A DNA stretch of 64,000 bases, taken from NCBI RefSeq assembly GCF_050320075.1, contig NZ_CP190018.1, one strand, 5' to 3'. The notes beneath the pieces are model-generated. The model was not told where the DNA came from, made no database searches, and saw only the letters and a program-made list of their open reading frames with translations. The translations under genes and the position numbers were made by a program. This document shows positions 27,701-64,000 of the stretch, piece after piece (position 1 is the first letter of the stretch; every line of letters starts with the position of its first letter). This stretch comes from Escherichia coli. GTDB taxonomy: Bacteria > Pseudomonadota > Gammaproteobacteria > Enterobacterales > Enterobacteriaceae.

Positions 27701-28497
27701 TAATCAGGTGAAATGCCAGACGACAGGAAAACAATATTATTGTTGACATAATCCCATTCAATAGATATTTGTTGAAGATGTATTATTACATCAGTAGCAT
27801 ATTCCAGACCGCCTTCCTGAATAATCTGATCCATAACATCCGCACGCTCTTTATATCTCGTGCAGTGCAGTTCAAGTGCCGCGAGTACAGCCATTACCGG
27901 TGATGGTAATTTTGTCGTTTTCGGGCTGTTAATCAGATCGATCGCCTGAGCGATGAAGTTTTGCCACTCTAAAGTACAGGCGCTGAAGTCAAATGTAGCT
28001 GTTTTGTTATCCCGTTGCGACACGCCACAGGCTAAGCGACGTAACTGGGTTAATTTATCTACAGGTGTAACAGGATCTCCGGGAAAGCGGCGATGGCTTA
28101 AGGTGGTGGGTACGACTTCAAGCGGAAAAACGACAGCAATATCTTTTGCCAGCCACGGTAAAATAACGTCTGTATTTTTGTCAGCCACGTAGAATTCTGG
28201 TGTAACTGAGGGCTGTTCCTGAATGATGGTAGAAAAGTCAGATAATTCGAGAGATTTCGTTACCGTTCGAGTATGTTTCGATGTAGCATTCTCCGCATGT
28301 TCCACATACCCCTTTTTCGTTTTCTCCGCAATCAGCTTGAGTTCCGCTTTTTCCGCCGCCGCAGCATCTGCAAAGCTTTTTACCTGACTTTGCCCGTTGG
28401 TGCCGACTTTGCCCCAACTGATATTCAGTTCGTTTCCCTGCTGCTCCACCGCCCAGAATTTATGTGATTTTTCGTCCTGATAAATATAGGTTTTCAT
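24703..28497 (-). CDS. molR: WGR-domain / DUF4132 protein (MolR family), intact 1264 aa
   Basis: N-terminus MKTYIYQDEKSHKFWAVEQQGNELNISWGKVGT is WGR-like. Length equals the K-12 molR pseudogene product as I recall it. 9-nt gap to yehI. Confidence 0.8.
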   Translation of the reverse strand: MKTYIYQDEKSHKFWAVEQQGNELNISWGKVGTNGQSQVKSFADAAAAEKAELKLIAEKTKKGYVEHAENATSKHTRTVTKSLELSDFSTIIQEQPSVTPEFYVADKNTDVILPWLAKDIAVVFPLEVVPTTLSHRRFPGDPVTPVDKLTQLRRLACGVSQRDNKTATFDFSACTLEWQNFIAQAIDLINSPKTTKLPSPVMAVLAALELHCTRYKERADVMDQIIQEGGLEYATDVIIHLQQISIEWDYVNNNIVFLSSGISPDYLQQYSSFELRLRKHLSLAEESLWQKCAQKLIAAVPHIPEWRQPLIALLLPEKPEIAHEIAQRLLGQKKLPSLEWLKIVATDEHILASLEKYHEPYAIFDDYYCGAIWSATVLQEQGVAALPRFAPYVASDYCADVLRHINHPFALTLLIRVAGHTKRCHDRMTKACAAFPHAALAALAELLVQKEENSWRIMLMTMLISQPTLAEQVIPWLSTPAVAVLKSCQQQLTQPSNHASADLLPAIVVSPPWLSKKKKSPIPVLDLAPLGIEPISYLTEEISNQLLAKYIWYSKHITVSHEESTANLLARMGFQRRIAGTYIKAPEAVVEAWLNEDYSTLISEFKVFHSPTGHYWHLGILTTLPLEKAVRAWNALTLSPHTDTEYAMLHFGLKGLPGLVNSLARYPQEALPITNYFAASELAPAVARAFNKLKTLRQDARTWLLKYPEHAITGLLSAALGKAGEAQDNARAALRMLTENGHQPLLQEIARRYNQPEVTDAVNAMLALDPLDNHPTKIPTLPAFYQPSIWTRPVLKANAQSLPDSALQHLGEMLRFHQEEALYPGLLQVKDACTADSLAEFAWDLFTAWQTAGAPSKESWAFTALGVLGNDDTARKLTPLIRAWPGESQHKRATVGLDILAAISSDIALMQLNGIAQKLKFKALQERAKEKIADIAESRELTVAELEDRLAPALGLDDNGSLLLDFGPRQFTVSFDETLKPFVRDVSGSRLKDLPKPNKSDDESQANDAVNRYKLLKKDARTVAAQQVARLESAMCLRRRWSPENFQLFLVEHPLVRHLTRRLIWGVYSAENQLQACFRVAEDNSYSTADDDLFTLQEGDISVGIPHVLEISPTDAVAFGQLFADYELLPPFRQLERNSYALTEAERNASELTRWAGRKCPSGRVMGLANKGWIKGEPQDGGWIGWMIKPLGRWSLIMEIDEGFAVGMSPADLSAEQVLSKLWLWEGKAESYGWGSNSTQEAQFSVLDDITASELINDIEALFE

Positions 28498-31500: not shown

Positions 31501-32307
31501 AGCAGCGAGAACTTTATCTACACAGCGTTGCCACTCATCTTCTGAAGCGAGTGAAAGATGATGACATAGACGTTGATGCCAGTTCGGTAGTGATTCTGCT
31601 TTGAGATCAGGGGGAATAATGGTGGTGACGTCGGCTTTTACTGGTTTATATTTGAGTTGAAGAGCGAGAAGGGCGATTTCAACGGTAGTTTCCAGACCAC
31701 AGCGAATGACTAAGTCATCGACCAGTTCATCTGTAGAGTAAGAGTTCCATAAATTCCAGAGCAATGCCGCATCAGATTGTATACTTCCTGTTTGTTGATT
31801 ATTCAGAATTCGCCTTTGTAACTCGGCAAACGCCAGCTGCCAGTTTTCAGGATAAGAGCGGTAATTATTGTCGGGGTCATATGCCCTGGTGTTATTCGCG
31901 ATGCGCTTCCATATTTGGCCATCTTTGTACAGATAATTGATCTCTCTGGGGCGAGAGCGATGAGGAAAAGCAAATCGATTAATATCGCCAGTTACCGGAA
32001 TGACTGCATCATCAGCCACCCATGGGCGTTTGTTTTTACTCTCAGGGGAGGTTTCAACTTCAGGAGTGGCTTTGGTGATGGGGGGGATATGCACGTTTGC
32101 TAAAGCATTTTCCACATAGCCTTTTTTCGTTTTCTCTGCGATCAGCTTAAGCTCCGCTTTTGCCGCTGCCGCAGCATCCGCAAAACTTTTTACCTGGTTT
32201 TGCCCTTTGGTGCCAACTTTTCCCCAACAGATATGCAACTCGTTTCCCTGTTGCTCCACCGCCCAGAATTTATGTGATTTTTCGTCCTGAAAGATAAAGT
32301 GCCTCAT
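28510..32307 (-). CDS. Second WGR-domain / DUF4132 paralog (MolR-like), 1265 aa
   Basis: N-terminus MRHFIFQDEKSHKFWAVEQQGNELHICWGKVGT. Same architecture as molR, diverged in the middle. 12-nt gap to molR. I do not recall a second copy in K-12. Confidence 0.8.
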   Translation of the reverse strand: MRHFIFQDEKSHKFWAVEQQGNELHICWGKVGTKGQNQVKSFADAAAAAKAELKLIAEKTKKGYVENALANVHIPPITKATPEVETSPESKNKRPWVADDAVIPVTGDINRFAFPHRSRPREINYLYKDGQIWKRIANNTRAYDPDNNYRSYPENWQLAFAELQRRILNNQQTGSIQSDAALLWNLWNSYSTDELVDDLVIRCGLETTVEIALLALQLKYKPVKADVTTIIPPDLKAESLPNWHQRLCHHLSLASEDEWQRCVDKVLAAIPSLSPARQPFAALLLPERPDIANAMALRYADQNVPAMTWLRLVVTDDAALTTAEKYDFPPLYHDFRAYLAMLLANNGVRGVSRILLEFTEEHSDNPTYLFERISETEDLVKWLWKTNHPDAIQILILGVIGKKKHLEYLSKACQKHPAAALAAYATLLAIHEDAQWRKALVKLITATPDLVTDVIPWVNAKAAGILSECRTQLVAEECEYATADMLPELFVAPPWVINKKTNVIPVFDLPVLPIPAVTDITPGITELISHTDISRFSEIAQYQSSQQTLFTDLPLIEKESWETSFIPFTPEQQILWQLGFNEWLHCEDDLHEKKYIPQSAVDALLRFDFPALKAEFAKYHNNANKSWNLSALCYLPGQQAISFLNQIIIEERYSGEKEILAVFGSTAIPAFMTCLQRDHQRLWIFTLFIGASELALPMAQRLQKKMAYKDAINWLANNPRHAAAGLLPLALGKPCQNREYARQAFRLLVKLNQRETIEEIGRRYNQPDVLAALATLFDSDPLEEYPAKIAPLPGFYQFTLWRRPRLKSNNLPLPDDAMRHLGTMLSFPRDITSYAGLATIKETFTHESLADFGWDLYTAWTEAGAPAKENWAFTSLGILGNDDTARKLTPLIRAWPGESQHKRAVYGLDVLADIGSDVALMLLNGIARKIKFKALQEHAREKINIVAENRGLTMAELEDRLAPDLGLDNSGSLILDFGPRQFTVGFDETLKPVVHDANGKVLKDLPKPNQSDDQTLATDSVNLFKQLKKDVHAIASQQIDRLEQDMCQRRRWTAEQFRLFLVEHPLVRHLTRRVLWGVYTEENTLIACFRVAEDSTYSDAQDELFTLPAGNIGIPHVLEISPESATAFGQIYADYEKLPPFRQLDRGYYHLTDNERDTHELIRWQGRLCQAGRIVGLERRGWQRLEESGSVYAMRKSTPYGALELETEHFSLIYGETGYSDLLPVESVKITSPGERYSTQPSLTFSALDAITASELINDIESLFD

Positions 32308-32402
32308 TCTGCATCCCTGTAATTTTATCCAGTTGAATGCTGATGCTACCAGTATTTATGCGGGTTAGAGAGAGACAAAATCGCAAGAAAACAACTTTAG
32401 GA

Positions 32403-32437
32403 ATTTATAAAGAAAAGGCGCTGTCGATACAGCGCCT
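32403..32437 (-). terminator. Intrinsic terminator of metG
   Basis: Hairpin ggcgctgt-cgat-acagcgcc followed by a U-rich tract on the minus strand, 10-45 nt after the metG stop. Confidence 0.6.
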
Positions 32438-32447
32438 TGAAAGGAGA

Positions 32448-34481
32448 TTATTTCACCTGATGACCCGGTTTAGCACCGGCATCCGGGCTTAGCAGGAAAA
32501 TATCTTTCCCGCCAGGACCGGCAGCCATCACCATGCCTTCGGAGATACCGAAGCGCATTTTACGTGGTGCCAGGTTAGCCACCATAATGGTGTGACGACC
32601 AATCAGTGCCTGCGGATCCGGGTAAGCAGAACGAATGCCGGAGAAGACATTGCGTTTTTCACCGCCGAGATCCAGCGTCAGGCGCAGCAGTTTGTCGGAA
32701 CCTTCAACAAACTCTGCGTTTTCAATCAGTGCCACGCGCAGGTCAACTTTGGCGAAGTCATCAAAGGTGATAGTTTCCTGGATTGGATCGTCAGCCAGCG
32801 GGCCAGTTACCGGCGCGGCAGCGGCTTTTACTTCTTCTTTAGATGCTTCCACCAGTGCTTCAACCTGCTTCATATCGATGCGGTTATACAGCGCCTTGAA
32901 CGGATTCACTTTATGGCCCAACAGCGGTTGCTGGATACCATGCCAGGTCAGTTCTGTATTGAGGAATGCTTCTGCACGCTCGGTCAGTTTCGGCAGTACC
33001 GGCTTCAGGTAAGTCATCAGCACGCGGAACAGGTTGATGCCCATCGAGCAAATTGCCTGCAGGTCGGCATCGCGGCCTTCCTGTTTCGCCACCACCCACG
33101 GAGCCTGTTCATCGACATAGCGGTTAGCCAGGTCAGCCAGCGCCATAATTTCGCGTACTGCTTTACCAAATTCGCGGCTTTCCCACGCTTCACCAATCAC
33201 TTCAGCGGCATCCGTGAAGGTTTTGTACAACTGCGGGTCAGCCAGTTCGCTTGCCAGCACGCCGTCAAAACGCTTGTTGATAAAGCCAGCGTTACGGGAT
33301 GCCAGGTTAACCACTTTATTCACGATATCGGCATTCACACGCTGAACGAAATCTTCCAGGTTGAGATCGATATCATCAATGCGCGAAGAGAGTTTCGCAG
33401 TGTAGTAGTAACGCAGGCTGTCAGCATCAAAATGATTCAGCCAGGTACTGGCTTTAATAAAGGTGCCGCGAGACTTGGACATCTTCGCGCCGTTCACCGT
33501 CACATAGCCATGAACAAACAGGTTAGTCGGCTTGCGGAAGTTGCTGCCTTCCAGCATGGCAGGCCAGAACAGGCTGTGGAAGTAAACGATATCTTTACCG
33601 ATGAAGTGGTACAGCTCGGCGGTGGAATCTTTCTTCCAGTATTCATCGAAGCTGGTGGTGTTGCCGCGTTTGTCGCACAGATTCTTGAAGGAACCCATGT
33701 AGCCAATCGGTGCGTCCAGCCAGACGTAGAAATATTTGCCCGGCGCGTTCGGAATTTCAAAACCGAAGTAAGGGGCGTCGCGGGAGATATCCCACTGTTG
33801 CAGGCCGGATTCAAACCACTCCTGCATTTTGTTTGCCACCTGCTCCTGCAACGCACCGCTGCGGGTCCATGCCTGCAACATTTCGCTGAAAGAGGGCAGA
33901 TCAAAGAAGAAGTGTTCAGAATCACGCATTACCGGGGTAGCGCCAGAAACCACCGATTTCGGCTCGATCAGTTCAGTCGGGCTGTAGGTCGCACCGCAGA
34001 CTTCGCAGTTATCGCCGTATTGATCCGGGGATTTACATTTCGGGCAGGTGCCTTTTACAAAACGGTCCGGCAGGAACATGCCTTTTTCCGGATCGTAAAG
34101 CTGAGAGATGGTGCGGTTTTTAATAAAACCGTTTTCTTTCAGGCGAGAGTAGATAAGTTCTGACAACTGGCGGTTCTCTTCGCTGTGCGTCGAGTGATAG
34201 TTGTCATAGCTGATGTTAAAGCCTGCGAAATCAGTCTGATGCTCCTGACTCATTTCGCCAATCATCTGCTCCGGGGTGATACCGAGCTGCTGAGCTTTCA
34301 GCATGATCGGTGTGCCGTGGGCATCGTCGGCGCAGATGAAGTTGACCTCGTGGCCGCGCATTCGCTGGTAACGGACCCAGACATCAGCCTGGATGTGCTC
34401 CAGCATATGGCCGAGGTGGATTGAGCCGTTAGCGTACGGCAGTGCGCACGTCACCAGAATTTTCTTCGCGACTTGAGTCAT
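32448..34481 (-). CDS. metG: Methionyl-tRNA synthetase
   Basis: ORF 32448..34490. Start at [25 protein letters not shown] gives 677 aa. Class I aaRS HIGH motif and KMSKS present. Confidence 0.95.
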
Positions 34482-51389: not shown

Positions 51390-52095
51390 ACAGAAAACCC
51401 CCAGCTAGGCTGGGGGTTCCGGAAAGCTTTCAGCTTTGAGCCAGTTATTCAAACCCCTTTTGATTTGTTAAAACACCTTGCGGTCTGGCAACTGCAAGTG
51501 TCAAACAAGAAATCAAAAGGGGGTCCCAATGGGGGACGAAAAGAGCTTAGCGCACACCCGCTGGAACTGTAAATATCACATAGTTTTTGCGCCGAAATAC
51601 CGAAGACTGGCGTTTTACGGAGAGAAGCGTAGGGCGATAGGCAGTATTTTGAGAAAGCTGTGTGAGTGGAAAAGCGTACGGATTCTGGAAGCAGAGTGCC
51701 GCGCAGATCATATCCATATGCTTGTGGAAATCCCACCCAAAATGAGCGTATCCGGCTTTATGGGATATCTGAAAGGGAAAAGCAGTCTGATGCTTTACGA
51801 GCAGTTTGGGGATTTGAAATTCAAATACAGAAACAGGGAGTTCTGGTGCCGAGGGTACTATGTCGATACGGTGGGTAAGAACACGGCGAAGATACAGGAC
51901 TACATAAAGCACCAGCTTGAAGAGGATAAAATGGGGGAGCAGTTATCGATTCCATATCCGGGCAGCCCGTTTACGGGCCGTAAGTAACGAAGTTGAATGC
52001 AAATGTCAGATCGTATGCGCCTGTTAGGGCGCGGCTGGTAACAGAGCCTTACAGGCGCATTTGAAAAACCTCCGGCTATGCCGGAGGATATTTAT
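51390..52095 (+). mobile_element. IS200-family insertion sequence (boundaries approximate)
   Basis: Contains an IS200 TnpA gene. Left-end perfect hairpin aacccccagc-tag-gctgggggtt (51396-51418) and subterminal hairpins 52015-52060 and 52069-52090. About 0.7 kb, as expected for IS200. Confidence 0.75.
51529..51987 (+). CDS. tnpA: IS200 transposase TnpA (HUH/Y1 family)
   Basis: MGDEKSLAHTRWNCKYHIVFAPKYRR ... HIHMLVEIPPK (HuH motif), 152 aa. Near-identical to recalled Salmonella/E. coli IS200 TnpA. Confidence 0.9.
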   Translation: MGDEKSLAHTRWNCKYHIVFAPKYRRLAFYGEKRRAIGSILRKLCEWKSVRILEAECRADHIHMLVEIPPKMSVSGFMGYLKGKSSLMLYEQFGDLKFKYRNREFWCRGYYVDTVGKNTAKIQDYIKHQLEEDKMGEQLSIPYPGSPFTGRK

Positions 52096-56539: not shown

Positions 56540-57580
56540 ATGAAATCAGTGGTGAATGATACTGATGGTATCGTGCGCATTGCAGAAAGCGTCATTCCTG
56601 AAATTAAACATCAGGATGAGGTACGGGTAAAAATTGCCAGCTCGGGCTTATGTGGTTCCGATTTACCCAGGATATTTAAAAATGGTGCACATTATTATCC
56701 AATAACGTTAGGCCATGAATTTAGCGGCTATATTGATGCGGTGGGATCCGGTGTTGATGATTTACACCCTGGCGATGCGGTTGCCTGTGTGCCGTTATTA
56801 CCCTGTTTTACTTGTCCAGAGTGTTTGAAAGGGTTTTATTCCCAGTGCGCAAAATATGATTTTATTGGCTCGCGGCGTGATGGTGGATTTGCTGAATATA
56901 TTGTCGTTAAGCGAAAAAATGTCTTTGCTCTACCCACGGATATGTCTATTGAGGATGGGGCTTTTATTGAGCCGATTACCGTTGGCCTGCATGCTTTTCA
57001 TTTAGCGCAAGGTTGTGAGAATAAAAACGTTATTATTATTGGTGCCGGAACCATTGGCCTGCTGGCTATTCAGTGCGCTGTCGCGCTGGGAGCAAAGAGT
57101 GTGACGGCTATCGACATTAGCTCAGAAAAACTGGCACTGGCAAAATCTTTCGGGGCGATGCTAACATTTAACAGCCTTGAAATGAGCGCGCCGCAAATGC
57201 AGGGCGTTTTACGCGAGCTGCGCTTTAATCAGCTTATCCTCGAGACGGCTGGTGTCCCGAAAACCGTCGAACTGGCGGTAGAGATTGCCGGGCCTCATGC
57301 CCAGCTGGCGCTGGTGGGCACGTTGCATCAGGATCTGCATTTAACATCGACAACGTTTGGCAAAATATTACGTAAAGAGCTGACGGTTATCGGCAGCTGG
57401 ATGAACTACTCCAGCCCTTGGCCGGGGCAGGAGTGGGAAACGGCGAGCCGGTTGCTGACAGAACGTAAGTTAAGCCTGGAGCCATTAATCGCTCACCGTG
57501 GAAGCTTTGAAAGCTTCGCCCAGGCGGTGCGTGACATCGCTCGTAATGCTATGCCGGGCAAAGTGTTGCTCATTCCCTGA
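56540..57580 (+). CDS. gatD: Galactitol-1-phosphate 5-dehydrogenase (Zn-dependent MDR)
   Basis: 346 aa. Zn-ADH motifs (GHEFSG, GAGTIG). Confidence 0.9.
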   Translation: MKSVVNDTDGIVRIAESVIPEIKHQDEVRVKIASSGLCGSDLPRIFKNGAHYYPITLGHEFSGYIDAVGSGVDDLHPGDAVACVPLLPCFTCPECLKGFYSQCAKYDFIGSRRDGGFAEYIVVKRKNVFALPTDMSIEDGAFIEPITVGLHAFHLAQGCENKNVIIIGAGTIGLLAIQCAVALGAKSVTAIDISSEKLALAKSFGAMLTFNSLEMSAPQMQGVLRELRFNQLILETAGVPKTVELAVEIAGPHAQLALVGTLHQDLHLTSTTFGKILRKELTVIGSWMNYSSPWPGQEWETASRLLTERKLSLEPLIAHRGSFESFAQAVRDIARNAMPGKVLLIP

Positions 57581-57679
57581 AACCGCGGGCCAGCGTGATG
57601 CTGGCCCGGTATTGTGCAAAACAGATCATTCACCAATGGTCCCCCTTCGTTTACACTAGCCACAATTGAATATGGGTAA

Positions 57680-58459
57680 ATGACGATGAATTCATTCGAG
57701 CGAAGGAATAAGATCATCCAATTAGTGAATGAACAGGGAACCGTGCTTGTTCAGGATCTGGCGGGAGTATTTGCTGCCTCGGAAGCGACAATCCGTGCCG
57801 ATTTGCGCTTTCTCGAACAAAAAGGCGTGGTTACGCGCTTTCATGGCGGTGCGGCGAAAATAATGTCCGGTAATAGTGAAACCGAGACCCAGGAAGTTGG
57901 GTTTAAAGAGCGATTTCAGCTCGCCAGCGCGCCAAAAAACAGAATAGCGCAGGCGGCAGTCAAAATGATCCACGAAGGGATGACCGTTATTCTCGACAGC
58001 GGAAGTACGACAATGCTTATCGCCGAAGGATTAATGACCGCCAAAAATATCACGGTGATTACCAACAGTCTCCCGGCAGCATTTGCCCTTTCCGAAAATA
58101 AAGACATTACTCTGGTCGTCTGTGGTGGGACCGTCCGCCATAAAACACGCTCGATGCATGGTTCCATTGCCGAGCGTTCATTGCAGGATATTAATGCCGA
58201 TTTAATGTTTGTCGGTGCTGATGGTATTGATGCGGTTAATGGTATTACGACCTTTAATGAAGGTTATTCGATTAGCGGGGCGATGGTTACAGCCGCAAAT
58301 AAAGTGATTGCCGTTCTCGATTCATCGAAATTTAATCGTCGCGGTTTTAATCAGGTACTGCCAATCGAAAAAATTGACATTATTATTACCGATGATGCCG
58401 TGTCAGAGGTGGATAAACTGGCATTGCAGAAGACACGGGTGAAATTAATTACGGTGTAG
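57680..58459 (+). CDS. gatR: DeoR-family repressor of the gat operon, apparently intact
   Basis: 259 aa uninterrupted ORF with DeoR HTH and sugar-binding domain. In K-12, as I recall, this gene is split by an IS element. Confidence 0.8.
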   Translation: MTMNSFERRNKIIQLVNEQGTVLVQDLAGVFAASEATIRADLRFLEQKGVVTRFHGGAAKIMSGNSETETQEVGFKERFQLASAPKNRIAQAAVKMIHEGMTVILDSGSTTMLIAEGLMTAKNITVITNSLPAAFALSENKDITLVVCGGTVRHKTRSMHGSIAERSLQDINADLMFVGADGIDAVNGITTFNEGYSISGAMVTAANKVIAVLDSSKFNRRGFNQVLPIEKIDIIITDDAVSEVDKLALQKTRVKLITV

Positions 58460-58464
58460 TATTG

Positions 58465-58510
58465 CTCTGTATGCCGGATAAAGTTTTTACACCGCATCCG
58501 GCATTACGGA
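58465..58510. repeat. REP-like palindrome between gatR and yegS
   Basis: atgccggataaag...acaccgcatccggcat inverted repeat. Confidence 0.5.
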
Positions 58511-58540
58511 TTCTCCCTGGTTCAAGAGAGAATAGTGTGA

Positions 58541-59440
58541 TTAACGCAACAATGGGCAATCTGGTGGTAATCGACAACGCAACGCCGCCGGAAGTATTTC
58601 AATATGAAAGTTTTGTCCGCTCAACGGTTCGCCATCAAGATTAAAAGTGATTTCGTGTGGGGCTTGTATATCAAACCACGACGAAGCGCCTTCGATAATA
58701 TTCGGGTTATCTTCGTCAGATTTTAATGTTGATACGAGAGCCGGAAGAATTTCATCGCCGGTAAAAATGCGCAGTTGCAGCAAGCCATCGTTAATTAACG
58801 CGTTCGGGCACAATTGCTGACCGCCACCGGCCTGACGCCCGTTACCAATACCAATGACCAGGGCGTCACCTTGCCAGTGAAAGTTTTCACCGCGGATTTC
58901 ACAACGGTCCGGTTGCAGAGTATCCATACGCATTAAGCCATGAATGATGTAAGAGACGCTACCCAGCGCGGCTTTTAATTTTTCCGGCGTTTCTGTGGTA
59001 ATACGCGTCCCAAATCCGCCTGTCGCCATATTAATAAAACAGGTTTGTTTGTTGACCTGCGCCATATCTATCGCAATGGCGTCACCGGCAATTGCCAGTT
59101 TCAGCGCCTTATCCAGTGCCTCAGGAATCCCTACACTGGTGGCAAAATCATTGGCGGTTCCTAATGGCAAAATTCCCAGCGCGGGTATGTCATCCCCCTC
59201 ACACTGAATCAACGCCGTAGAAACTTCATTAATGGTGCCATCGCCACCACCGGCAATCACCGTTGCGACGCCCAACTTCCGGGCCTCCTCTACATATCGT
59301 GCGGCATCGCCTTTCTCCCAGGTGACCCGCACATGGATCGTCATTCCTTCCTCACGCAACAGCATAATTGCTTCGCGCAAGGGTAGATTGTCAGTACTTT
59401 TGCCATTAAGAATCAGTAAGCTGGCGGGAAATTCTGCCAT
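58541..59440 (-). CDS. yegS: Lipid kinase (DAGK_cat family)
   Basis: 299 aa. Diacylglycerol-kinase catalytic domain motifs (GGDGT). Confidence 0.85.
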
Positions 59441-59845
59441 GATCGTATGTGCCTTTATGATTGGTCTGTAGATAGTGTAGAGCAGAAAACAAAAGGTGGA
59501 GTCAGAACAGGATGAAAGTCGGAGGATAAAAAGTCAGTTCAAGTATGGAGGATTCAGTGGTTACCACCAGGAGCTTGCAATGGGGACAGCGAATACTAAC
59601 GGCTGCCACCGATAAATTTCAAAAAAGAGCATATACCTAATATTCAACTAAACAGTGGCATCTTCAATATAATATATTAAAGCCCCCATGGAGTTACCCT
59701 GAAGGGCCTCAATGTCCGTAATTCCTACTTATGTAGGAAATGTTGTACAGAACATTTATTATAATCCTATTCAATTATAATAATCATGCCATTATTATAT
59801 TTAAACACTAGAGAGTGTCGTTGGTATTTAATGGGGGAAGGTGAG

Positions 59846-60163
59846 ATGAAAAAGATAGCTGCTATATCATTAATTAGTATTTTTATTATGTCTGGTTGTG
59901 CTGTGCATAATGATGAGACAAGTATCGGTAAATTTGGTCTTGCATATAAAAGTAATATTCAGCGTAAACTCGATAACCAATACTACACCGAAGCCGAAGC
60001 TTCTTTAGCCAGGGGTAGAATATCTGGTGCAGAAAATATAGTAAAAAATGATGCAACTCATTTCTGTGTTACTCAGGGCAAAAAAATGCAAATAGTTGAG
60101 CTGAAGACAGAAGGTGTAGGATTACATGGTGTCGCTCGTCTGACATTCAAATGTGGAGAGTGA
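59846..60163 (+). CDS. yegR: Small lipoprotein YegR
   Basis: ORF 59786..60163. Start at MKKIAAISLISIFIMSGC (lipobox) gives 105 aa. Confidence 0.7.
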   Translation: MKKIAAISLISIFIMSGCAVHNDETSIGKFGLAYKSNIQRKLDNQYYTEAEASLARGRISGAENIVKNDATHFCVTQGKKMQIVELKTEGVGLHGVARLTFKCGE

Positions 60164-60322
60164 GAATATTTTTTGGTAAGCGTCAAATATGCGCGTTCTG
60201 GCTGTGCGTAGCCGGAACCTGTGGGAGCACGATGCCGATAAGTGAAAGGCATCGTGCTATGAAGGAGGATTCTATCGATGTGGTCAATGGAAGACGGTTA
60301 CCAGAGATAGGGCTTATGCATA

Positions 60323-60349
60323 AAAAAATAAGCCCGTGTAAGGGAGATT
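60323..60349. repeat. P2-type attachment-site core (attL)
   Basis: aaaaaataagcccgtgtaagggagatt matches the 27-bp P2 att core as I recall it. Lies ~80 bp from the integrase stop. Confidence 0.65.
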
Positions 60350-60428
60350 TAGGGTGTCACCAGTAGGGGCTTTCAACGGTACAATGCGGGTTTGAGCGGC
60401 ATAAATTACCACTGAAAGCCCTTAAACG

Positions 60429-61442
60429 TTACTCTACTGTGGACACTGTGTGGACACTCTCGACCTCAGTACCACCTCTTAGCGGATTAAGAGAAATGGC
60501 GTCCTGAAGGTACTCTGGCGCAAAATGAGCGTAAACCATAGTTTGCTCAATCCGCGTGTGACCTAGTATCCGTTGTAGCGTGATAATACTTCCTCCATTA
60601 ATCATGAAATGAGTGGCAAAGCTGTGCCTTAGTGCATGTGTAGCTTGCCCCATTGGCAAATCCGGTTTTATTGCTTTCATTGTTCGTCTGAAGCGAGGGT
60701 AATCAGCATCAGGGAATAAAAAACCTCGTTTGTTATCCGCGATCATTTTGGCAACAGCCTCTGAGATCGGGACGGTGCGTGGTTTGTTTGTTTTCGTTTT
60801 AACAAACGTGACGCGGTTATGGATGATATTTTCTGCTTTCAAACGAGCTGCTTCTCCCCAACGTGCTCCAGTACTCAGGCAAAGAATCGCAATCTTTTTG
60901 TTGTCGCCGTCAAGAGCAGCAAGCAGTAAGGCAATTTCTTCCTGCGTGAGATAGCCTGTGTCTGGTTTTTCCTCCTTAAGCCTTTTTGTCCCTCTGATAG
61001 GGTGCTCACCAAAGAATAACTCCGCTTCAATCAGGGCTGTAAACATGCCGCTAATACATGTTAAATCACGATTGATACTCGAAGGTTTAATACCCTGACT
61101 TCTTCGGGTGGCGCAGTACTGGCTGATAAGCGATTTCGTAATTTGAAATGCGCATGGGTCATTCGTTATTTTTGTGAAGATTTCAATTTTCCCAAGATTA
61201 GATTTCCCATGCTCTTCGTGTTTACCCTTTAAATCCCACCAGATCTGTGTCAGCTCCGACAGACGTCGCTTGTCTGTTGGTTTTGATAGCCATTCTTTAT
61301 TGTGGTGGTTGTACAACGTGTATTTCTCGAAAGCGACAGCTTCGCTTTTCTTATCAAACTTCCTACGGATGCGTTTTCCATTACGTCCAGTAGGGCGGAT
61401 GTCCACTTCATATCGACCATCATCGAGTTTTTTGATTGCCAT
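60429..61442 (-). CDS. int: P2-type tyrosine integrase
   Basis: 337 aa. Catalytic R..HxxR..Y region (HALRHSFATHF, MVYAHF). Confidence 0.9.
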   Translation of the reverse strand: MAIKKLDDGRYEVDIRPTGRNGKRIRRKFDKKSEAVAFEKYTLYNHHNKEWLSKPTDKRRLSELTQIWWDLKGKHEEHGKSNLGKIEIFTKITNDPCAFQITKSLISQYCATRRSQGIKPSSINRDLTCISGMFTALIEAELFFGEHPIRGTKRLKEEKPDTGYLTQEEIALLLAALDGDNKKIAILCLSTGARWGEAARLKAENIIHNRVTFVKTKTNKPRTVPISEAVAKMIADNKRGFLFPDADYPRFRRTMKAIKPDLPMGQATHALRHSFATHFMINGGSIITLQRILGHTRIEQTMVYAHFAPEYLQDAISLNPLRGGTEVESVHTVSTVE

Positions 61443-61557
61443 CAGAAAACCCTCCGAGTGGTGTGTTTTTTTGCGACTACTAATCGCTTTTTTCGTGGTG
61501 GCTGAAATTTAGCCACCAATAGTAGGCACTTGTGATGAATATATTCACGATGAATTG

Positions 61558-61857
61558 TTAACCAGTCTTTTGACCGGAGTGGGGCGACGTTGTTTCGTTT
61601 TGCCCAAAGTGTGCGAGAGCGGGCGCAATTTGCCCGGACTCAGGAGCGATCTGATTGGTCATGAACCATAAAGTGTATTTGGTGAATTGTGGGGTCTGCA
61701 GGATGTTCATCATGACATCTGTTGGAGGTGTTGAACGACCACTTTCATAGTAACTCAGCGTGCCATACGGAACCCCTGTTAAATCAGCAAGTTGTTGTCT
61801 GCTCAAATACTCTGATTTTCGCATTAAGACTATCTTCTCGCTTATCGTGTTTGACAT
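61558..61857 (-). CDS. C: P2-type immunity repressor C
   Basis: 99 aa. HTH (LSRQQLADLTGVPYGTLSYYESG). Divergent from cox. Confidence 0.85.
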   Translation of the reverse strand: MSNTISEKIVLMRKSEYLSRQQLADLTGVPYGTLSYYESGRSTPPTDVMMNILQTPQFTKYTLWFMTNQIAPESGQIAPALAHFGQNETTSPHSGQKTG

Positions 61858-61971
61858 GGTGTTTAGATCTCAATAGTATTTAGTTTAGATGTAGATTGTT
61901 TAGTGCTTGGATGTGGGCACTAAAAGGCATTATAAGACATTAAACGCAATTCATGAGGGCTAGAGGACGAC
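61858..61971. promoter_or_regulatory. Pe/Pc lysis-lysogeny switch region with direct-repeat operators
   Basis: Intergenic region between divergent C and cox with direct repeats tttagat (61862, 61884) and face-to-face promoters expected for P2. Confidence 0.55.
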
Positions 61972-62247
61972 ATGAGCAAGCAAGTAACACTCATGACTGA
62001 TGCGATTCCTTATCAGGAGTTCGCAAAACTAATAGGAAAATCGACAGGAGCGGTTCGTCGGATGATCGATAAAGGAAAGCTGCCTGTAATTAATATGACC
62101 GATCCACAATCAGCTTCAGGTCGTGCAGGTGAATATTGGGTATACCTTCCGGCATGGAATAACGGACTAAAACTGGCTTATGAAAGCCGCCCTAAAGAGA
62201 TTCGTGACGGCTGGTTGATGTGGTTAGGTCTCGGTGAACCACGTTAA
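61972..62247 (+). CDS. cox: P2-type Cox excisionase/repressor
   Basis: 91 aa, first gene of the early operon. Confidence 0.85.
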   Translation: MSKQVTLMTDAIPYQEFAKLIGKSTGAVRRMIDKGKLPVINMTDPQSASGRAGEYWVYLPAWNNGLKLAYESRPKEIRDGWLMWLGLGEPR

Positions 62248-62428
62248 GGAGAACCGTATGAATGAGCCTCGTTGTATTGCTCAGTTACTGCGTAACGAAA
62301 GCCCCAGGGCGATTGACTTCACCATCACCCACGGTAAGGGGCGTAAGGGAATCATTATCCGCACCAAAAAACAGAGTCCGTTAAAAAAGGCTCTGACCTT
62401 TCTGAAAAGCCGGAGGGTATGGAAATGA
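62234..62428 (+). CDS. P2 early small protein (orf78-like)
   Basis: 64-aa ORF overlapping the cox end. Position in early operon. Confidence 0.5.
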   Translation: MNHVKENRMNEPRCIAQLLRNESPRAIDFTITHGKGRKGIIIRTKKQSPLKKALTFLKSRRVWK

Positions 62429-62925
62429 CAGTGATGACGCTCAATCTCGTTGAAAAACAGCCAGCAGCTATGCGCCGGATAATTGGCAAGCATCTTGCCG
62501 TCCCTCGCTGGCAGGATACATGTGATTATTATAATCAGATGATGGAGCGCGAACGGCTAACGGTTTGCTTTCATGCACAGTTAAAACAGCGTCACGCAAC
62601 GATGCGTTTTGAAGAAATGAACGACGTCGAACGTGAACGGCTGGTTTGTGCAATTGATGAATTGCGTGGGGCATTCTCAAAACGCCGTCAGGTCGGTGCA
62701 AGTGAGTATGCATATATTAGTTTTTTAACAGTCAGCCAGCGACGTACTTTATTTATGCACGCACGACTGACAGAAAAAGAATTCAACCAGCCGTACTGGC
62801 GAATTAATGAAGAATCATGTTACTGGCGTGATGCTTTATTCCGTGCATTACGTGAATTATTCAGTCTGTTTGAGTATGCACCGACAATTCTGACGTCGGT
62901 AAAACCAGAGCAATATCTGCATTAA
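62419..62925 (+). CDS. B: P2-type replication protein B
   Basis: 168 aa. Position and size match P2 B. Confidence 0.75.
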   Translation: MEMTVMTLNLVEKQPAAMRRIIGKHLAVPRWQDTCDYYNQMMERERLTVCFHAQLKQRHATMRFEEMNDVERERLVCAIDELRGAFSKRRQVGASEYAYISFLTVSQRRTLFMHARLTEKEFNQPYWRINEESCYWRDALFRALRELFSLFEYAPTILTSVKPEQYLH

Positions 62926-62988
62926 ATAATTAACCAGATTTTTTAACGCACTTAATCGTGCGGGGCTTCTTTTTGCCTGGAGAAAGTC

Positions 62989-63213
62989 ATGCATACAGTT
63001 TCTGAAAATCAGTGCGGTAAATACGCATTACTGCTGCAACAGGCCAGAACCGAAGCACAGGCCGACGCTGCGACGCGCTTTTCTTCTCATCTTGACGCCA
63101 TGATTCGCCATATCACAAAGGCGGAGTTATCCCGCGTGGAGATAGTCGAGCTGCTCAGTCAGGAGTCGGAAAAATTTCACAATATCGGATTGTCTCGCGG
63201 GGAGGTGCTTTGA
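62989..63213 (+). CDS. P2 early small protein (orf80-like)
   Basis: 74-aa ORF in the early operon. Confidence 0.5.
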
Positions 63214-63515
63214 TGTCCTGTTCTCATTCAGTTGTATTACTGAATAACGCCTTAAAAATCGCCGTTATGGAAAATGGTGATTTATCTCTTATTCAACTTT
63301 GTCTTGATAAAGAAAAACGCGACATAACTGAATCTGTTATCGCGATTTATCAGAATGAATTAAACCTCCTGTCTGATGTGGTCAATTTACTTGTTAAACG
63401 CGCGGTATTCCACAAGCAAATTTCCTCCGTGGATGAACTGACAAAATTAACGACAGAAATCGTCAGCTATTGCGCTGATGAATTTAAGAAACTGAACGAC
63501 AAAAGGAACTGGTAA
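63210..63515 (+). CDS. P2 early small protein (orf81-like)
   Basis: 101 aa. ATGA overlap with the previous ORF. Confidence 0.5.
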
Positions 63516-63739
63516 TGCCGGACAACGTAGATTTCATTCAGGAACAACAGGCTGAATTACTGGAGCGCCAGATTAACGCGGCAAGGGTAAAACATTGCGG
63601 TGTTTCTGCGCTGGTTTGCGAAGAGTGTGACGTGCCAATACCTGCTGCCCGTCGTGCGGCTTATCCGTCAGCCACGCGTTGTGTTTCCTGTCAGTCAGTC
63701 TTTGAAGCAAAAAACAAACATTACCGGAGAACGGCATGA
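63515..63739 (+). CDS. DksA/TraR-type C4 zinc-finger protein (orf82-like)
   Basis: 74 aa with CxxC...CxxC (CEECDV...CVSCQ). Confidence 0.65.
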   Translation: MPDNVDFIQEQQAELLERQINAARVKHCGVSALVCEECDVPIPAARRAAYPSATRCVSCQSVFEAKNKHYRRTA

Positions 63740-64000
63740 GTATTCGTATTGAAATTGGCGAACGTTATGTCGTTACCAGTGACAGCTTTCAGTTTATTCT
63801 CCACGAGAAAAAGAGAGCGGAAAGCGGTAAAAACGCCGGTCAGGAATGGCTGTCGGTGGTTGGTTATTACCCGAAATTAAGCCAGCTCGTTTCCGGCCTG
63901 ATGCATCACGATATTCTGACCGGAAGCGCAAAGTCTTTTGCTGATTTAAACGCGCAGGTTGAGCAACTCAGCAAGCGTTGTTCAGAGGCTTTTGGCTCAT
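63736..64000 (+). CDS. P2 early protein (orf83-like), 3'-truncated by window edge
   Basis: ATG at 63736 with ATGA overlap. Open to the window end. Confidence 0.5.
   Translation, partial: MSIRIEIGERYVVTSDSFQFILHEKKRAESGKNAGQEWLSVVGYYPKLSQLVSGLMHHDILTGSAKSFADLNAQVEQLSKRCSEAFGS

Follow-up and report, generated by a model that had tools for sequence, protein, structure and literature searches.

What element begins beside the host gene yegR at position 60323 of the stretch of Escherichia coli DNA analysed here, and runs off its right end? The stretch, called the window below, comprises 64,000 nucleotides of contig NZ_CP190018.1 (assembly GCF_050320075.1), and the element occupies positions 60323-64000. 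It has to be asked from which phage this arm derives, whether it belongs to a whole prophage or to a remnant, and which host sequence served as the integration target. Our answer, to which we assign a probability of roughly 0.93, is that positions 60323-64000 are the left, int-proximal attachment junction (attL) together with the arm for integration, immunity and early replication of a Peduovirus prophage, which carries the att-int-C-cox module of phage P2 itself and which is probably complete and mosaic beyond the window.

The evidence that carries this reading is the alignment with P2 (NC_001895 / AF063097). When the window was compared with sequenced phages by megablast, P2 24356-28033 matched window 60323-64000 in one piece at 98.4% identity, and the match begins exactly at 60323, the base that a preliminary description of this DNA had given. 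Base by base, there are 60 mismatches over the 3,678 bases and not a single gap. The core, the Cox-binding region, the gene for the C repressor, the operator half-sites O1 and O2, the hexamers of the promoters Pe and Pc, and orf78 are 100% identical to P2. The gene order int-C-cox-orf78-B-orf80-83 and the reading frames are those of P2 up to the window end; no gene of the arm has an internal stop, and each of the nine genes in the window is intact and carries 0-8 substitutions. The match represents homology to a specific phage genome and not a chance pattern. The complete identity of C, the operators, the promoters and the core therefore predicts that the element would have both the immunity and the integration specificity of P2.

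The feature coordinates (table 1) were transferred from the curated P2 annotation onto the window, and several results agree with them. The listing of open reading frames (ORFs) in 59500-64000 gives a layout of a leftward 337-aa integrase, a leftward 99-aa helix-turn-helix protein and then small rightward genes, and every gene assignment in the arm agrees with the Pfam, PHROG and NCBIfam scans. Unsupervised scans recover, independently of the P2 annotation, the promoter Pe (the best sigma-70 match in the region, 10/12), the terminator after B (at 62947-62962) and the direct repeats TGTGGACACT of the P' arm (at 60438-60447 and 60449-60458). The preliminary description had listed a P2 att core, integrase, C repressor, cox, B and small early ORFs in canonical order, and each of them lies where it had been placed. 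Its term 'P2-like' names the right family but is too loose, since the integration and immunity module is P2's own. It had also regarded the orf78-83 equivalents as only partly assignable. In this it was mistaken: the comparison with P2 that it proposed maps all the small ORFs one-to-one onto their P2 counterparts, at 92-100% amino acid identity and with end-to-end PHROG matches, and it is only their functions that are unassigned. The most diverged gene within the window arm is orf81; both orf81 and orf83 belong to Pfam DUF5405 and are therefore paralogues. These two genes carry the label 'replication initiation protein' in PHROG and in RefSeq phage records, and nothing was found that backs it. 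The product of B is named 'phage replication protein B' in RefSeq; in P2, B is needed for lagging-strand synthesis.

What follows position 64000 was read in the genome of Ec-U3 (NZ_CM192149.1), which is the best extension past that point, by proxy and not as a reading of the window's own source. Compared with the whole 64,000-base window, Ec-U3 has 2 mismatches and no gaps, with no mismatch at all within 56651-64000; the last 25 kb of the window are ~100% identical to it, and the next genome reaches 98.6%. Its prophage, referred to below as the sister prophage, is 34.4 kb long and lies between yegR and trhP/yegQ. A second perfect 27-bp core is found 34,434 bp to the right, next to trhP and the small RNA (sRNA) gene cyaR. 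Gene A directly follows orf83, as it does in NZ_CP067311.1, another record with the same arm. The late operons Q-P, O-S, V-G and FI-D and the gene ogr are all there, and each of the P2 backbone proteins (37/37) has a full-length match in a single high-scoring segment pair. The 19 nt of cos agree perfectly with P2, and the annotation of the prophage contains no pseudogene flags. The preliminary description had proposed to extend the sequence to the right att site and had taken the absence of a second core or of late genes as the mark of a remnant; in Ec-U3 both are present. The sister prophage is collinear with P2 at 96.5-97.6% except for three replaced segments, which all lie past 64000, namely 4.2 kb between A and Q (the orf91-tin-old slot), the tail-fibre tip (H), and the fun(Z) slot. 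From a genome with 2 differences in 64,000 bases we infer that the prophage of the window is likewise complete (34.4 kb) and mosaic.

The arm does adjoin yegR, as had been described, and the gene lies 159 bp left of the core. Comparison with K-12, however, reveals an identity that the preliminary description had overlooked: the core, AAAAAATAAGCCCGTGTAAGGGAGATT, corresponds in reverse complement to the final 27 nt of cyaR, which comprise the 3' half of its terminator and the U-tract. Since the core is the end of cyaR, the integration target is the 3' end of this sRNA gene, and yegR is a mere neighbour. The order of the locus in K-12 is trhP (yegQ) - cyaR - cryptic prophage PR-X (ogrK, yegZ) - yegR. 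In Ec-U3 an intact cyaR stands at the far junction (Rfam CyaR_RyeE, 100.7 bits); in window 59000-64000 no RNA family was detected (Rfam, E<=1), the 27-nt cyaR fragment being too short to score. When the empty site is rebuilt by joining the left flank to the right flank with cyaR through a single core, it equals a real genome at 100%, and the insertion was therefore conservative and core-duplicating. In this reconstruction P2 Int is the enzyme that recombined the attP core with the identical 27 bp at the cyaR end, with duplication of the core; cyaR is, on the same comparison, restored whole at the far end of the prophage, and 27 bp of it are left as a partial copy at 60323-60349. We take the site to be 'locI', the classical site that P2 prefers in E. 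coli C; a literature search for cyaR/RyeE as a phage attachment site, or for locI/locH, returned no usable source, including for the name. An 8-bp perfect inverted repeat (GGGCTTAT / ATAAGCCC, at 60310-60335) bridges the host flank and the att core, and in the empty site it follows the cyaR terminator directly and faces the 3' end of yegR.

The preliminary description had expected anti-phage cargo in a variable slot past 64000, and the gpA-gpQ slot of Ec-U3 does hold such cargo, a TIR-plus-transmembrane system that is already published. Three adjacent genes match, over their full length, the PADLOC models 2TM-TIR, 1TM-TIR and TIR-TM (E-values 2e-58, 3e-75 and 2e-118, respectively), and Pfam TIR_2 is detected too. 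The slot is 99.7% identical at the DNA level to that of phage P2_AC1, in which the TIR-plus-transmembrane locus was shown to confer protection from lambda, LF82_P8 and relatives of P2 (Rousset 2022, PMC9122126); the same study reports 1,650 arrangements at gpA-gpQ, a hotspot of defence genes (PMC9122126). A literature search for the system name '2TM-1TM-TIR' gave no usable source. The record NZ_CP067311.1 carries a different, single-gene cargo, which indicates turnover of the slot. The sister prophage has three further proteins (94, 305 and 433 aa) for which comparison with Pfam, NCBIfam, PADLOC, PHROG and PDB sequences gave only PHROGs of unknown function and weak SMC/Rad50-like coiled-coil similarities, with no match in PADLOC or the PDB.

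Table 1. Positions of the features of the prophage arm and its host flank in the window; the last two rows lie beyond it and are given in coordinates of the Ec-U3 locus.
Feature	Position	Strand	Basis and comparison with P2
yegR, host gene, intact, not the integration target	59846-60163	+	RefSeq annotation of Ec-U3 (identical here)
P-arm-like relic in host flank	60270-60309		local alignment to P2 24287-24327
attL core, 27-bp crossover region	60323-60349		27/27 identical to P2 24356-24382 (attP core)
Cox-binding region of attP/attL	60366-60439		P2 annotation; 0/74 bases differ
Int P' arm-type sites, two direct repeats TGTGGACACT, inside int 3' end	60437-60463		1/27 bases differs
int, tyrosine integrase, 337 aa	60429-61442	-	99.4% aa identity to P2 Int (E161D, A327V); Pfam Int_N 1.3e-24, Phage_integrase 8.7e-22
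C, immunity repressor, 99 aa	61558-61857	-	300/300 nt and 99/99 aa identical; Pfam HTH_3
Pe, early promoter	-35 61851-61856, -10 61874-61879; region with operators 61851-61890	+	identical
C operator half-sites, both GTTTAGAT, 22 bp apart	O1 61861-61868, O2 61883-61890		identical
Pc, lysogenic promoter, drives C and int	61929-61954 (-10 61929-61934, -35 61949-61954)	-	hexamers as in P2
cox, 91 aa	61972-62247	+	98.9% identity, one substitution (D41N); Pfam Phage_Cox 9.5e-48, full length
orf78, 56 aa	62258-62428	+	identical to P2 Orf78; phrog_273 full length, 7e-41
B, replication protein, 166 aa	62425-62925	+	98.8% aa identity to P2 gpB (C61R, G114R); phrog_235 full length
putative rho-independent terminator after B	62947-62974	+	P2 annotation; 1/28 bases differs
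orf80, 74 aa	62989-63213	+	one substitution; Pfam DUF2732 4e-10; phrog_128
orf81, 100 aa	63213-63515	+	92% aa identity, 8 substitutions; Pfam DUF5405 5e-33; phrog_265
orf82, TraR/DksA-type C4 zinc finger, 74 aa	63515-63739	+	2 substitutions; Pfam zf-dskA_traR 7e-11; TIGR02419, 77.8 bits, over its cut-off
orf83, last 11 nt removed by the window end	63736-64000	+	2 substitutions in 88 aa; Pfam DUF5405 2.8e-14; P2 orf83 is 27769-28044 and A starts at 28034, so that the ATG of A would be window position 64001
94-aa and 305-aa genes, between TIR system and portal gene	32232-33436 of Ec-U3 locus
433-aa coiled-coil protein, fun(Z) slot	15110-16411 of Ec-U3 locus

Completeness is the part of the reading that the window itself leaves to be argued, for it stops at orf83 and nothing in it proves that the late genes follow. 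The arm could be all that is left of a cryptic remnant like PR-X of K-12 (ogrK-yegZ), with the late genes deleted, and the 629-bp remnant that K-12 holds at the cyaR site documents that decay takes place there. Against this stand the nine intact genes, the full sister prophage with its attR, cos and backbone genes in a genome so close to the window, and the 736 complete E. coli genomes (13.6% of 5,426) in which at least 80% of the query, yegS-yegR plus the P2-type arm, is kept contiguous. A remnant is accordingly quite improbable. A different doubt attaches to the right edge, where the last base of the window immediately precedes the ATG of gene A: the junction might be an artefact of assembly or rotation, with the arm not physically continuous with the body of the prophage. 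Among the best 25 E. coli records matching 59000-64000, 10 end at the same base, and since many RefSeq records likewise stop there and have gene A at their position 1, the boundary is made by software. It looks as if start-gene rotation software takes the 'replication gene A' of P2 for the initiator of a replicon, and such rotation probably explains why the window ends at 64000. The break is, however, a coordinate convention only, because in circular records such as NZ_CP067311.1 gene A stands at base 1 and orf83 spans the origin; in Ec-U3 the same sequence is continuous in the middle of the record. That the arm and the body are not joined is thus scarcely conceivable, and what the observation does mean is that prophages can be split across the ends of rotated records.

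The preliminary description had suggested mitomycin C as a test of inducibility, and the value of that test depends on the class of repressor. P2 is the textbook 'non-inducible' phage, and C repressors of its type are not under SOS control. In the P2 family, SOS induction needs tum, a LexA-controlled antirepressor gene (PMC11195241), and the LexA-box pattern CTGT-N8-ACAG does not occur in the 34.4-kb prophage of Ec-U3. With a C of the P2 type and with neither a tum gene nor a LexA box evident, the prophage is not expected to be induced by the SOS response or mitomycin C; mitomycin C is then a poor test, expected to be negative, and therefore cannot tell a live prophage from a dead one. Mitomycin C would induce the element if it were a heteroimmune or SOS-inducible relative (186-like, Wphi-like or E. 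coli HS-like), and such a relative is conceivable in so far as P2-like phages fall into several immunity classes (PMC2995052), some are SOS-inducible via Tum (PMC11195241), and the sister prophage is, from orf78 rightward, nearer to P2_AC1, which has another int/C/cox module. Yet C and its operators are 100% P2, window 60323-62256 matches P2_AC1 only in two short segments of int (72-79%), the LexA-box pattern is absent as stated, and the cargo proteins match only TIR or PADLOC TIR-system models. We therefore consider an SOS-inducible relative to be very improbable.

Several points nevertheless weigh against the reading of a complete prophage with P2's own module, or at least against its activity. 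The single substitution in Cox, D41N, adjoins M42, the residue at which the cox2 mutation M42T abolishes spontaneous phage release; D41N occurs in none of 10 records of P2-type phages, which comprise 5 distinct phages with some duplicate deposits. Excision competence is for these two reasons not guaranteed. The exact Cox protein with D41N is present on 83 E. coli contigs. Among the annotated proteins of the replaced slots nothing Tum-like was seen in a Pfam scan, which gave only TIR_2 and a weak coiled-coil, and no search with the Tum sequence of 186 was part of it. Everything to the right of 64000 is extrapolated from Ec-U3, and the source of the window may carry a different right part. The activity of the prophage, finally, is judged from sequence alone.

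The mechanism is proposed on the basis of identity to P2 and of the published biology of P2; the duplication of the core and the intact switch can be read from the sequence directly. The 99-aa C, the half-sites O1/O2 spanning the -10 of Pe, and the face-to-face arrangement of Pe and Pc correspond to the architecture described for P2, in which the function of the C repressor and the organization of its operators are documented (PMC2995052). C, made from Pc together with int, would bind O1/O2, the direct-repeat half-sites on either side of the -10 of Pe, and the bound C would silence the rightward early operon cox-orf78-B-orf80-81-82-83-A. In rare cases of escape, Cox would shut off Pc, coat the boxes adjoining the core and, with Int and IHF, direct excision, after which B and A would drive replication from the ori inside A. 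The antirepressor of the satellite P4 could also derepress the prophage. Cox is known as a repressor of Pc, as an excision directionality factor that forms a filament on its boxes, and as an activator of satellite P4 (PMC5009727, PMC3936717). The exact Cox-box consensus TTAAASNCM gave 12 matches over the window, 9.3 being expected, and was set aside as uninformative; the identity of the Cox region to P2 (74/74) was used instead.

How the element relates to known phages can be described in terms of what it shares and what it has exchanged. With P2, the type member of the genus Peduovirus, it has in common the core (27/27), Int (99.4%), C and O1/O2/Pe/Pc (100%), Cox (98.9%) and the gene order. 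The sister prophage differs from P2 in the replacement of orf91-tin-old and fun(Z), in the C-terminus of the tail-fibre protein H (73% amino acid identity) and in Cox D41N. About 6.7 kb are replaced or divergent, and the product of aligned identity and coverage, computed from the alignment blocks, is ~78-80%. By the convention of the International Committee on Taxonomy of Viruses the threshold is 95% for a species and 70% for a genus. On these figures the sister prophage misses the species threshold and would be placed in the same genus as P2, formally as another species. In relation to P2_AC1 (NC_070903), the sister prophage is 94.5-98.5% identical in orf78-A, the cargo, cos and the late genes, whereas the integrase (326 aa in P2_AC1), the repressor and cox are different, and the fun(Z) slot holds a 181-aa ORF in P2_AC1 and 433 aa in Ec-U3. 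Since the likeness to P2_AC1 holds only from orf78 rightward, the element is a mosaic, in which a P2 integration and immunity module is set on a P2_AC1-like body. Phage 186 and the E. coli HS prophage share the genome plan and the late genes of the P2 family (PMC2995052, PMC11195241), but they use the LexA-controlled Tum, and 186 has a larger, unrelated CI repressor where the window has the 99-aa C of P2.

The closest parallel with respect to location is PR-X of K-12, which is reportedly the remnant described by Barreiro and Haggard-Ljungquist in 1992. It occupies the same site: in the comparison of MG1655 2167183-2167989 with window 60164-60340, the yegR-side flank is 100% identical over 177 nt, a stretch that takes in 18 nt at the start of the attL core, and the side composed of ogr, the P arm, the core and cyaR is 97.5% identical to the right end of the sister prophage. 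In K-12 the loss reaches from within the attL core into gene D and leaves 629 bp, whereas the window keeps the complete left arm and Ec-U3 the whole phage. The first 18 nt of the core are fused to a truncated D (yegZ), and PR-X therefore arose when a full P2-type prophage at cyaR underwent an internal deletion. Among the 5,426 complete E. coli genomes, 4,565 (84%) have at this position an empty cyaR site or a small remnant only. The exact Int, B and orf81 proteins are each present on at least 1,000 contigs. Much of this is already known: P2 is among the best-characterised temperate phages, the site is common, and the cargo of the closest genome is published as antiviral.

A further peculiarity lies in the host flank. 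The segment 60270-60309, 14-53 bp left of the core, resembles the Int-binding region of the P arm of P2, with an exact 15-nt match at 60275-60289. The alignment scores 21, a value reached by 0 of 2000 shuffles (mean 8.1, maximum 14). Of the two arm-type repeats, one is intact and the other degenerate; the segment lies 13 bp nearer to the core than in attP. The flank with this relic is also 100% identical in K-12 and in the empty-site genome. As the relic is common to lysogens, K-12 and empty sites, its simplest reading suggests that an older P2-like attR left attB behind as a scar. The alternative is that the transfer went in the reverse direction and a phage may have captured host flank. When the 159-bp host flank was compared with phages in a distant search, only records that contain host DNA were found, among them vB_EcoM-720R8, and no phage accounts for the relic better than P2 does. 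GenBank AY639599, entered as 'Phage TP', is a chromosomal remnant locus with the yegR flank, a D fragment, ogr and yegQ ('putative protease'), and its flank is 100% identical to that of the window. Two separate proposals are made here tentatively, with the odds somewhat against them: that the 'empty' cyaR site is a relic attR (P-arm relic, core and cyaR) left by an ancient deletion, and that the 94-, 305- and 433-aa genes of the sister prophage may serve defence or counter-defence. If the former were true, every modern lysogen would possess a partly attP-like attL, and the directionality of Int and Cox could be biased as a result. The fossil origin and the cargo genes would be of modest interest even then.

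Elsewhere in the window, gatR, which encodes the DeoR-family galactitol repressor, is intact at 57680-58459; in K-12 MG1655 it is split by IS3E. According to the Ec-U3 annotation, yehL is frameshifted and yehM has an internal stop (~16737-20104 in the window). An IS200/IS605 tnpA lies between gatY and fbaB at ~51529-51987 (converted from the Ec-U3 annotation).

For the annotation of E. coli genomes, the finding means that each gene of this region can take its label from P2, and that the integration target to be recorded is cyaR and not yegR. For the biology of the host, a lysogen of this type is expected, by analogy with P2, to be immune to P2, not to be SOS-inducible, and to be able to help the satellite P4.

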